Positions 43,360 through 57,332 are shown, counted from the first letter of the stretch. The stretch: DNA of 64,000 bases from Acidimicrobiaceae bacterium (GCA_009837445.1 VXTM01000024.1:10515-74514), one strand, 5' to 3'. Translations and numbers: made by a program. Notes: generated by a model not told the origin, from the letters alone.

Positions 43360-43890
43360 CTAGCCGTGGACGTAGTGGGAGGGGTCCTCGGCGGGGTCGG
43401 GCGTCTGGTTGATCGGGCAGTCGTTGGCGATGTCCAGGATGGCCAGTGTCCGCCCGATGCCCACGCAGTAGCCGATCAGCGTTATCAGCTCGAGGATCTG
43501 CTGGTCGGTGAAGTGCTCCTTCATGCGGGCCCAGTAGTCCTCATCGCTCATCATGGCCTCGTGATCCCAGCAGAACCGCTCGGCGGTCTCGGCGGCCAGC
43601 TTCTCGGCCTCGCTGAACGCGCCGCCCTCGGCGTAGGTGGCGACCTGCTGGTAGAGGCCCTCTTCGAGTCCTTGCTGCATCGCCGATGCAGACCGGGTGT
43701 CAATTCAAATGTGGCACTGGTTGATCTGGGCCACCCGCATGCGGGCGATCTCGCGGACCCGCACGTCGAGGGAGACCTTGGTGTACAGCGCCTGGGCGGC
43801 GGCTCCCATGGCCATTCCCACATCGGGCTGGAGGCTCCACATCCGGATGCGCTCGAGCCCCTCGCCGTCACCGAAGTCGATGCGCGCCAT
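43360..43890 (-). CDS. AhpD-like/carboxymuconolactone decarboxylase family protein with in-frame TGA at 43705..43707 (candidate selenocysteine, C-H-I-U motif)
   Basis: ORFs 43705..44058 and 43360..43680 are in the same frame and separated by one TGA. The joined product from ATG 43890 reads ...REIARMRVAQINQCHI[TGA]IDTRSASAMQQGLEEGLYQQVATYAEGGAFSEAEKLAAE... (176 aa). The TGA aligns with the second Cys of the family CxxC motif. Confidence 0.65.
43675..43691 (-). promoter_or_regulatory. SECIS-like stem-loop downstream of the in-frame UGA
   Basis: The mRNA reads UGA-AUUGACACCCGGU-CUGCAUC-GGC-GAUGCAG. This is a perfect 7-bp stem with a G-starting triloop, and the stem starts 13 nt after the UGA. 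Confidence 0.45.
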
Positions 43891-43901
43891 GGCGGTTGCG
43901 G

Positions 43902-44186
43902 CTAGCCCTTCTCGGTCGTCGGGTCGATGATCTTGCCGACCTCGGTGACGATGGTCGCCGGGAAGCCGCTGCGCTCGGCATGCTCGTCGATCAGCTCGGC
44001 GCGATCGCAGACGTAGACGCAGAAGGTCTTGTCTCCGGCCACGTAGCTGTGCTCCCACTGGATGGCCTTGCCCTCGGACTGCATCGCCTGCAGGACTTCA
44101 TTGGACTGCCCGGCCGCGGCCCGAAGCTGCTCGCGCTCGGCCGAGCCGATGTCAGGAATGTCCCGTTCGATGATGAAGCGCCGCAT
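43902..44186 (-). CDS. DUF4242 family protein
   Basis: MRRFIIERDIPDIGSAEREQLRAAAGQSNEVLQAM...IQWEHSYVAGDKTFCVYVCD is the characteristic DUF4242 sequence. Its stop is 11 nt before the CMD-family gene start. Confidence 0.75.
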   Translation of the reverse strand: MRRFIIERDIPDIGSAEREQLRAAAGQSNEVLQAMQSEGKAIQWEHSYVAGDKTFCVYVCDRAELIDEHAERSGFPATIVTEVGKIIDPTTEKG

Positions 44187-44712: not shown

Positions 44713-45123
44713 TCAGGATGTGGCCAGTTCGAAGCCTTCGTCCAGCCACCCGATCTTGCCACCGATCATCTTCTTGACCGGCCGCCCGAGCCGCGCCAGG
44801 CGGGCCGCCGCCCGGTCGGCGCCGTTGCAGTGCGGTCCCGCGCAGTAAACCACGAACAGTGTGGCCGCCGGGTAGAGCGCCAGGGTCGACTCGTTGATGG
44901 TCGAGTGGTGCATGAAGGTCGCCCCCGGCACGTGCCCGGCGTCGAAGCCGGCTTGGTCGCCGTTGACGTGCAGGAGCACGAAGTCGGGCGCTCCGTCCTT
45001 CATCGCCTCATGAACGTCCCAGCAGTCGGTCTCCAGCGCCAGCAGGCGCTCGAAGTGCTCTGCAGCCTCCTCGGCGCCCGCGGCCGGGATCGCAGTGACG
45101 TGGCTCGCTGTCGTCGTACCCAT
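44713..45123 (-). CDS. single-domain rhodanese-like sulfurtransferase
   Basis: MGTTTASHV... from ATG 45123, with AAGGAGG nine nt upstream. GHVPGA and active-site loop VVYCAGPHCNG. Confidence 0.8.
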   Translation of the reverse strand: MGTTTASHVTAIPAAGAEEAAEHFERLLALETDCWDVHEAMKDGAPDFVLLHVNGDQAGFDAGHVPGATFMHHSTINESTLALYPAATLFVVYCAGPHCNGADRAAARLARLGRPVKKMIGGKIGWLDEGFELATS

Positions 45124-57162: not shown

Positions 57163-57247
57163 TTCGTGTTTCCGACACCACGATGAAGTGCCAGAGGCAG
57201 GAGGTTCCAGAGGCAATAGGTCTGGTGCCAAGCAAACCTGCGTGCGG

Positions 57248-57332
57248 TGTCGGAGGGGGGACTTGAACCCCCACGCCCAATAAGGGCACTAGCCCCTCAA
57301 GCTAGCGCGTCTGCCAATTCCGCCACTCCGAC
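57248..57332 (-). tRNA. tRNA-Leu (anticodon GAG), class II with long variable arm
   Basis: The reverse complement reads GTCGGAG-TG-GCG-GAATTGGCAGA-CGC-G-CTAGC-TTGAGGG-GCTAG-TGCCCTTATTGGGCGT-GGGGG-TTCAAGT-CCCCC-CTCCGAC-A. All stems pair. The anticodon loop is TT-GAG-GG. CCA is not encoded. Confidence 0.9.

Follow-up and report, generated by a model that had tools for sequence, protein, structure and literature searches.

The stretch of DNA described here comprises 64,000 nucleotides from an Acidimicrobiaceae bacterium (GCA_009837445.1, VXTM01000024.1:10515-74514) and is hereafter referred to as the window. On its minus strand, two open reading frames (ORFs), 43705..44058 and 43360..43680, lie in a common frame and are parted only by one TGA codon (43705..43707), which we propose to encode selenocysteine (Sec) in a protein of the AhpD-like/carboxymuconolactone decarboxylase (CMD) family. 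Reading through this codon from the ATG at 43890..43888 gives a complete coding sequence of 176 codons (43360..43890, minus strand), in which the UGA is codon 62 and the junction carries the motif ...AQINQCHI[TGA]IDTRSASAMQQGL...; the joined protein reads MARIDFGDGEGL...RMRVAQINQCHI[UGA]IDTRSASAMQQGLEEGLY...HYVHG and ends at a TAG (43362..43360). Codon 59 (TGC, 43714..43716) provides the first, putatively resolving cysteine of a C-x-x-U redox motif. The UGA is followed by a translated spacer of 13 nucleotides (43692..43704), which is made up of codons 63-66 plus the initial base of codon 67, is constrained at the level of its residues and contains the codon for the invariant R66 (43693..43695), four residues past the second redox position. 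Directly adjacent is the hairpin CUGCAUC-GGC-GAUGCAG (43675..43691), which overlaps codons S67-Q72 and combines a 7-bp stem with a G-initial apical loop of 3 nucleotides, whose first G is located 21 nucleotides from the A of the UGA, and the stem is in turn directly followed on its 3' side by the sequence CAAGGA (43669..43674), the codons of Q73 and G74. An AUG at 43680, within the hairpin and 24 nucleotides downstream of the TGA, is used by gene callers as start of a 106-residue ORF. The initial annotation of this region had described the two ORFs in the same frame with one TGA between them, the read-through product of 176 codons and a perfect 7-bp hairpin with a G-initial loop 13 nucleotides past the UGA, and its coordinates and sequences were all found to be correct.

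With a cysteine written in place of the UGA, the joined protein is recognized by the Pfam model CMD (PF02627) with 40.3 bits at a cut-off of 23, in a match that covers residues 22-103 and spans the UGA. The clade of proteins to which it belongs shares the motif E47-x11-C59-x-x-U62-x3-R66, with an arginine that is invariant in the clade and also found in its nearest Cys homologues. The classical AhpD motif is E-x11-C-x-x-C-x3-H, and it was such a motif, with a histidine past the second cysteine, that the initial annotation had assumed, which does not hold for the position of R66. Since this position is a histidine in the structurally characterized PA0269, the presence of arginine suggests a different arrangement for proton relay or substrate binding.

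To describe the fold, we relied on a structure model of the Cys homologue P0032, which is 50% identical and was modelled with an alignment of homologues, so that the fold of the window protein is assigned by homology. The model (predicted local distance difference test 83, predicted template modelling score 0.80) is all-alpha and has the CxxC motif where a short helix begins. In a Foldseek search its best matches are the single-domain AhpD-like proteins PA0269 (2IJC and 2O4D, also 7XW1), Atu0492 and mlr4105, and further matches include the debrominase Bmp8 and AhpD of S. pneumoniae and D. radiodurans. The top matches PA0269 and Atu0492 have template modelling (TM) scores of 0.77-0.84 on the target, and the others have scores of about 0.63-0.67. 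A profile search of PDB sequences also retrieved PA0269 (E 5e-13). Both PA0269, deposited as AhpD of P. aeruginosa, and Atu0492 (2GMY) are single-domain AhpD-like proteins that share the all-alpha core and a ...QINGC-x-x-C... motif at a helix start with the protein described here and that constitute its best matches in sequence and fold. They differ in being Cys proteins with a C-x-x-C-x3-His motif where the window protein has C-x-x-U-x3-Arg, in their identity of only 20-27% and in lacking about 30 additional, poorly predicted residues at its C-terminus. AhpD of M. tuberculosis, the canonical reductant of AhpC, is a member of the same superfamily with redox chemistry based on a CxxC motif. Its structures (1KNC and 1GU9) match the P0032 model only weakly (TM about 0.5, E > 0.4), and no ahpC is adjacent to the gene described here in the clades examined.

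The assignment of the UGA is supported by the distribution of codons among relatives. When a single representative genome was scanned for each species, 80 loci were identified, 79 of which cover the site of the UGA, nearly all from Acidimicrobiia and including metagenome-assembled genomes (MAGs) of sponge-associated, marine planktonic and freshwater Ilumatobacteraceae/acIV bacteria. In these species-level relatives, whose proteins are 47-93% identical to the window protein, the column holds TGA in 75 and TGT in 4 of the 79 cases, and the codon is consequently not peculiar to this genome. In a protein search, about 80 clusters with identities of 60-95% were found, almost all of them called as proteins of 106 residues that correspond to the C-terminal fragment, and full-length homologues (161-181 residues) appear only at identities of at most 51%. 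In latter proteins, the second cysteine of a CxxC motif (CHIC, CNVC, CEVC or CVVC) falls into the UGA column, which agrees with the earlier placement of the TGA on this residue, and all more distant full-length homologues equally contain a cysteine in the column. The first cysteine, which aligns with the first cysteine of the CxxC motif in the Cys homologues and in PA0269, is invariant in the 76 orthologues with a TGA (TGC in 63, TGT in 13), including the gene in the window.

The C-terminal ORF is identical on 20 public contigs, among them those of the NCBI MAGs GCA_009845925.1 and GCA_026705265.1. As had been anticipated from the sequence, standard gene callers do not recover the full gene: every public contig examined, those of marine relatives included, is annotated with one ORF of 61 and one of 106 residues, and in dozens of Acidimicrobiia MAGs the shorter piece is named 'hypothetical' and the longer a 'CMD family' fragment. 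In some public assemblies, the locus carries fused or frameshifted calls (proteins P0102, P0076, P0080 and P0053), such as a fusion of a SCO4226-like protein with the N-terminal portion of the AhpD-like protein or changes at the C-terminus, which probably reflect assembly indels. Six loci (L025, L038, L040, L045, L058 and L060) contain an Acidimicrobiia-type gene under record titles naming 'Bifidobacterium sp./breve' or 'Methanobacteriota archaeon' and are probably from mislabelled or contaminated bins.

Evidence for translation across the UGA comes from aligning the 76 TGA-type genes codon by codon. The entropy at the three codon positions (in bits, H1/H2/H3) is 0.72/0.39/1.46 upstream and 0.82/0.64/1.53 downstream of the TGA, with the third position on either side being much more variable than the second, as is typical for coding sequence. 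This purifying substitution pattern in both halves of the gene is in line with the open and protein-like character that had been noted for the codons past the TGA. In the spacer, Thr65 and Arg66 never change as amino acids, yet there is free variation at their synonymous sites (H3 of 1.44 and 1.73), including exchanges between CGN and AGA. Because the residues are retained and the synonymous sites are not, the substitution pattern shows that ribosomes continue past the UGA in the same frame.

The hairpin was investigated in a gap-free alignment of the same 76 sequences encompassing 88 columns, where RNAalifold independently recovered the same 7-bp stem. The stem is completely paired in all 76 sequences and its 13-nucleotide core is invariant. 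Variation is confined to the pair between columns 33 and 47, which is found as U-A in 55, as C-G in 15 and as U-G in 6 sequences and never as a mismatch, even though the compensatory change on the 3' side alters the protein from Gln to Arg. None of 500 column shuffles matched the observed covariation score or the percentage of paired positions, and sliding the register of the stem lowers the pairing to 14-57%. A constraint on the nucleotide sequence is also evident from the codons that form the hairpin. The third positions of Ala68 (GCA), Ser69 (UCG) and Ala70 (GCG) have an entropy of 0, compared to a median of 1.73 bits over 31 invariant residues with four-fold degenerate codons, and these three are the only ones among the 31 that are devoid of any synonymous variation. 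The AUG of codon 71 in the 3' arm is likewise invariant (76/76). On the 3' side of the stem, where synonymous variation is reduced, CAA is found in 71 and GGA in 70 of the 76 orthologues. No conserved pairing partner for CAAGGA was found in the alignment or by folding, and the sequence might be part of a contact with SelB or the ribosome. An extended lower stem, which is predicted in folds of single sequences, is not supported by the alignment and was dismissed.

Conversely, no hairpin is formed in the four orthologues with TGT (folding z-scores of –0.27 to +0.49), which retain the peptide AASAM with the use of other codons (GCAGCCUCUGCAAUGGC). The structure is thus present and covarying in every TGA form and absent from the TGT forms, which answers the question of its conservation in orthologues raised with the initial annotation. 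One of the TGT genomes (L076) contains a decayed copy of the hairpin (GCAUCAGCGAUGG; L076:10184-10226). This remnant, with two mismatches in the hairpin core (GCATCAGCGATGG), is likely a fossil of the Sec insertion sequence (SECIS) left after a reversion from Sec to Cys. The same pattern of Sec-to-Cys replacement has been described as 'remnant SECIS' by Zhang and colleagues (PMC1794560).

In a neighbour-joining tree calculated without support values, the outgroups with Cys branch at the base and all Sec forms constitute one clade, with the TGT genomes (L055, L072, L074 and L076) nested deep in its freshwater subclade. Owing to this topology, the data fit a single old change from Cys to Sec, followed by a later reversion that was accompanied by the loss of the hairpin.

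In its location inside the coding sequence, 13 nucleotides past the UGA, and in its small G-initial apical loop, the hairpin resembles bacterial SECIS (bSECIS) elements of the E. coli fdhF type and the consensus derived for them (PMC1088965), and it is kept with the UGA and lost with the Cys codon as in the described remnants (PMC1794560). It differs by a loop of only 3 nucleotides (GGC), in a role of SelB that is predicted from sequence, and in being stricter than the loose bSECIS consensus, as its core of 13 nucleotides is invariant across 76 species and is complemented by the additional constraint on the CAAGGA at its 3' side.

Taken together, we consider it very probable (with a probability of about 0.9) that the locus contains a genuine Sec codon and a SECIS hairpin in one gene of 176 residues coding for an AhpD-like thiol-selenol oxidoreductase. 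In the proposed mechanism, the hairpin at 43691..43675 would act as bacterial SECIS element and bring SelB, loaded with Sec-tRNA(Sec), to the ribosome while the UGA occupies the A site, thus leading to the insertion of Sec instead of termination. By analogy with AhpD-like proteins, Sec62, positioned where a helix begins in the all-alpha AhpD fold, would be the nucleophile attacking a peroxide or an oxidized protein or thiol substrate. Cys59 would form a selenenylsulfide to resolve the intermediate, with subsequent reduction by a cellular reductant. In this scheme, the dependence on SelB and tRNA-Sec, the incorporation of selenium, the substrate and the roles of both redox residues are what we infer.

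Several observations weigh against this assignment. The folding energy of the single sequence is not exceptional compared to shuffled sequences (z of –0.37 for 61 nucleotides and –1.49 for 43 nucleotides), and in the window, with its GC content of 68.8%, 11 of 1,403 TGA triplets precede a comparable perfect 7-bp hairpin with a G in its loop. As observed in one sequence alone, the hairpin provides weak evidence, and the observation is far above chance because of the conservation across species. Six of the seven stem pairs never vary, leaving structural covariation to a single pair, and the loop of 3 nucleotides is presumably at the small end of those described for bSECIS elements. The element was not matched by any model of Rfam, in which bacterial SECIS are poorly represented, even at permissive thresholds. 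A tRNA-Sec was neither detected in the 64-kb window, where ARAGORN and Rfam found only a tRNA-Leu, nor by ARAGORN in the loci of 60 relatives, and tblastn searches with SelA, SelB and SelD from E. coli gave no match in the window or in the loci of the 80 relatives. The flanks of these relatives amount to about 1.1 Mb in all and to under 2% of a genome, and the negative result for Sec genes is therefore uninformative in either direction; SelA proteins of E. coli and Aquifex have long invariant blocks in common. A second selenoprotein gene was likewise not found, either in the window or among 1.36 Mb of DNA from relatives. Finally, the scores of the protein for NCBIfam models are below their cut-offs, with 47.1 versus 310 bits for NF053654 ('YciW-related (seleno)protein') and 16.3 versus 110 bits for NF041047 ('GSU3128 family (seleno)protein'), its best matches, which are both models of the CMD superfamily that allow Sec at the CxxC site, and with 25.9 versus 81.8 bits for TIGR01926, the model used for the AhpD-like family in a 2026 review (PMC13188914). 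The protein is a member of the CMD superfamily and, judged by these scores, falls into neither of the two curated equivalogs nor the TIGR01926 subfamily.

As for the decoding machinery, the genes selA, selB, selC and selD were reported for all 84 complete Actinomarina genomes, which belong to the Actinomarinales, another order of Acidimicrobiia, with about five selenoproteins per genome (2026 preprint, bioRxiv 10.64898/2026.04.03.716425). By analogy, this literature would support Sec machinery in the organism described here at the level of the class.

The in-frame translation of the UGA that is evident from the alignment does not by itself give the identity of the inserted residue. The codon could also be read by a near-cognate tRNA as Trp, Cys or Arg, with stimulation by the hairpin and without Sec machinery, for which neither the window nor the flanks of relatives yielded a gene. 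We regard this as improbable, since the column is that of the catalytic cysteine in the CxxC motif, with Cys as the sole alternative in relatives, which is the standard signature of Sec/Cys pairs. An insertion of Trp or Arg would destroy the redox center, whereas Cys would be obtained at no cost from a TGC or TGT codon. Moreover, position and G-containing loop of the hairpin match the bacterial SECIS described previously (PMC1088965), and Sec machinery has been reported in the other order of the class mentioned above. Less probable still is a split gene, in which translation would stop at the TGA and restart at the AUG 24 nucleotides downstream (43680) to produce polypeptides of 61 and 106 residues, with the hairpin serving to couple termination and reinitiation. 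This would be compatible with the invariance of the AUG in the 3' arm in all 76 sequences and with the two ORFs found in every public annotation. However, the codons between TGA and AUG are under purifying selection at the amino acid level, and the pattern observed for Thr65 and Arg66 would not be expected from an untranslated spacer, which makes a split gene unlikely. In addition, the Cys orthologues are uninterrupted and without a hairpin, and a split would detach both redox residues from the remainder of the fold and eliminate the second one.

A recent nonsense mutation, an error of the assembly or a decaying pseudogene would require little, as TGC is converted to TGA by one substitution, and the first of these had been left as caveat in the initial annotation. 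It is excluded by the TGA in 75 of 79 relatives and by the conserved hairpin, and for the entire group the remaining probability is negligible in light of the identical C-terminal ORF on 20 independent contigs, the TGA in 75 other species-level genomes down to an identity of 47% and the purifying, coding-type substitutions in both halves. Similarly minute is the probability that the lineage has reassigned TGA to sense throughout its genome, an assumption for which the in-frame TGA itself is the only indication. Ordinary genes of the window terminate at TGA, with the next gene being the one expected, as found for tpiA, with secG following, and for a TauD-like dioxygenase followed by uracil-DNA glycosylase, so that TGA functions as a regular stop in this genome. 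Moreover, among the in-frame TGAs with coding-like flanks, only that of codon 62 is located inside a single domain.

This distinction emerged from an inspection of other in-frame TGAs. A raw screen for TGAs with at least 50 open codons on each side returned 190 cases, which is uninformative in DNA of high GC content. In the window, five other in-frame TGAs have a coding-like composition on both sides. Three of these, all on the minus strand, were rejected as Sec codons because they are plain gene ends with the next gene in the same frame: 59670, between tpiA and secG, 8975, between the TauD-like dioxygenase and uracil-DNA glycosylase, and 17675, between an unknown and a DsbA-like gene. Such pairs of genes separated by a TGA mimic interrupted ORFs in a naive scan. 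The other two (13325 and 21025) are in frames that look non-coding or are very short. No second copy of the SECIS core was found, nor was there in 1.36 Mb any other credible in-frame TGA followed by a hairpin with a GGC loop.

The genomic neighbourhood of the gene varies between clades. In the window, the gene directly upstream encodes a SCO4226-like protein (43902..44186, minus strand), and the order of a rhodanese-like gene, a cupin, the SCO4226-like gene and the AhpD-like gene is shared by the window and its ten closest relatives. Directly downstream are a dimethylsulfoniopropionate (DMSP)-lyase-like cupin (PF16867, 42717..43319, plus strand) and an F420H2-dependent quinone reductase (PF04075, 42177..42704, plus strand). 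The synteny that includes latter cupin and the reductase is found only in the ten closest, sponge-associated relatives, and marine planktonic relatives have genes for a nitroreductase, a chorismate mutase and a CoA-transferase as neighbours. No peroxiredoxin or ahpC gene was found within 4-10 kb of the gene in three clades, nor was there any operon partner conserved across clades. In the absence of a conserved partner and an adjacent peroxiredoxin, a function can be proposed by analogy with the family only. It is conceivable, though speculative, that the enzyme would be a reductive dehalogenase rather than a peroxidase, in analogy to its fold relative Bmp8 and to Sec-dependent deiodinases. Rhodaneses are sulfur and selenium transferases, and some of them are selenoproteins themselves. 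The rhodanese-like gene in the window (44713..45123, minus strand, with a weak Pfam match) is located three genes upstream and contains no in-frame TGA. The sole tRNA of the window is a tRNA-Leu(GAG) (57246..57332, minus strand), which is also found near the gene in three relatives (L004, L008 and L009).

The existence of the family was already known, as had been stated from the outset. AhpD-like CxxU proteins were introduced as a new selenoprotein family from the Sargasso Sea, with 27 sequences, each of which has a SECIS-like hairpin whose small apical loop contains a G (PMC1088965). The Global Ocean Sampling data subsequently provided 299 sequences of 'AhpD-like 1' (COG2128, CxxU) and 70 of 'AhpD-like 2' (PF02627, CxxU; PMC2398784), and a review from 2026 distinguishes four CxxU families related to AhpD/CMD (PMC13188914). 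The protein described here shares with these published proteins, of the COG2128/YciW type and of the AhpD-like 2/CMD type, the superfamily, the CxxU motif with Sec in second position, the existence of Cys homologues, a stem-loop with a G-containing loop close past the UGA and a distribution in marine and freshwater environments. It differs in belonging to a clade that is essentially confined to Acidimicrobiia and in having Arg for the His of the motif. Relatives in JGI data are named 'alkylhydroperoxidase family enzyme', which we take to be the label of COG2128. The clade is probably part of the published AhpD-like family, be it AhpD-like 1 or AhpD-like 2/CMD.

No concept is changed by these results, as the family, the CxxU motif and the logic of SECIS elements have been known since 2005. 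A modest addition is that the aligned sequences show one putatively Sec-containing clade with an invariant SECIS core throughout most of the Acidimicrobiia. This points to the use of Sec in sponge-symbiont and freshwater Acidimicrobiia, for which it is hardly mentioned in the open literature. As a consequence of the annotation as ORFs of 61 and 106 residues, protein catalogues miss a full-length redox enzyme together with its selenium dependence. The gene would offer a convenient marker for the use of Sec by abundant Acidimicrobiia, including sponge symbionts, marine plankton and freshwater acIV. More tentatively, and with considerable doubt, the clade could be a distinct and so far uncurated selenoprotein subfamily defined by the motif E-x11-C-x-x-U-x3-R, which would have originated once and been kept by nearly the entire class, in sponge symbionts, marine planktonic members and freshwater acIV alike. 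If this were the case, the decoding of Sec would be an ancestral, class-wide trait, which has so far been reported only for Actinomarinales (2026 preprint), and an unusually rigid, lineage-specific recognition between SelB and SECIS would be indicated.

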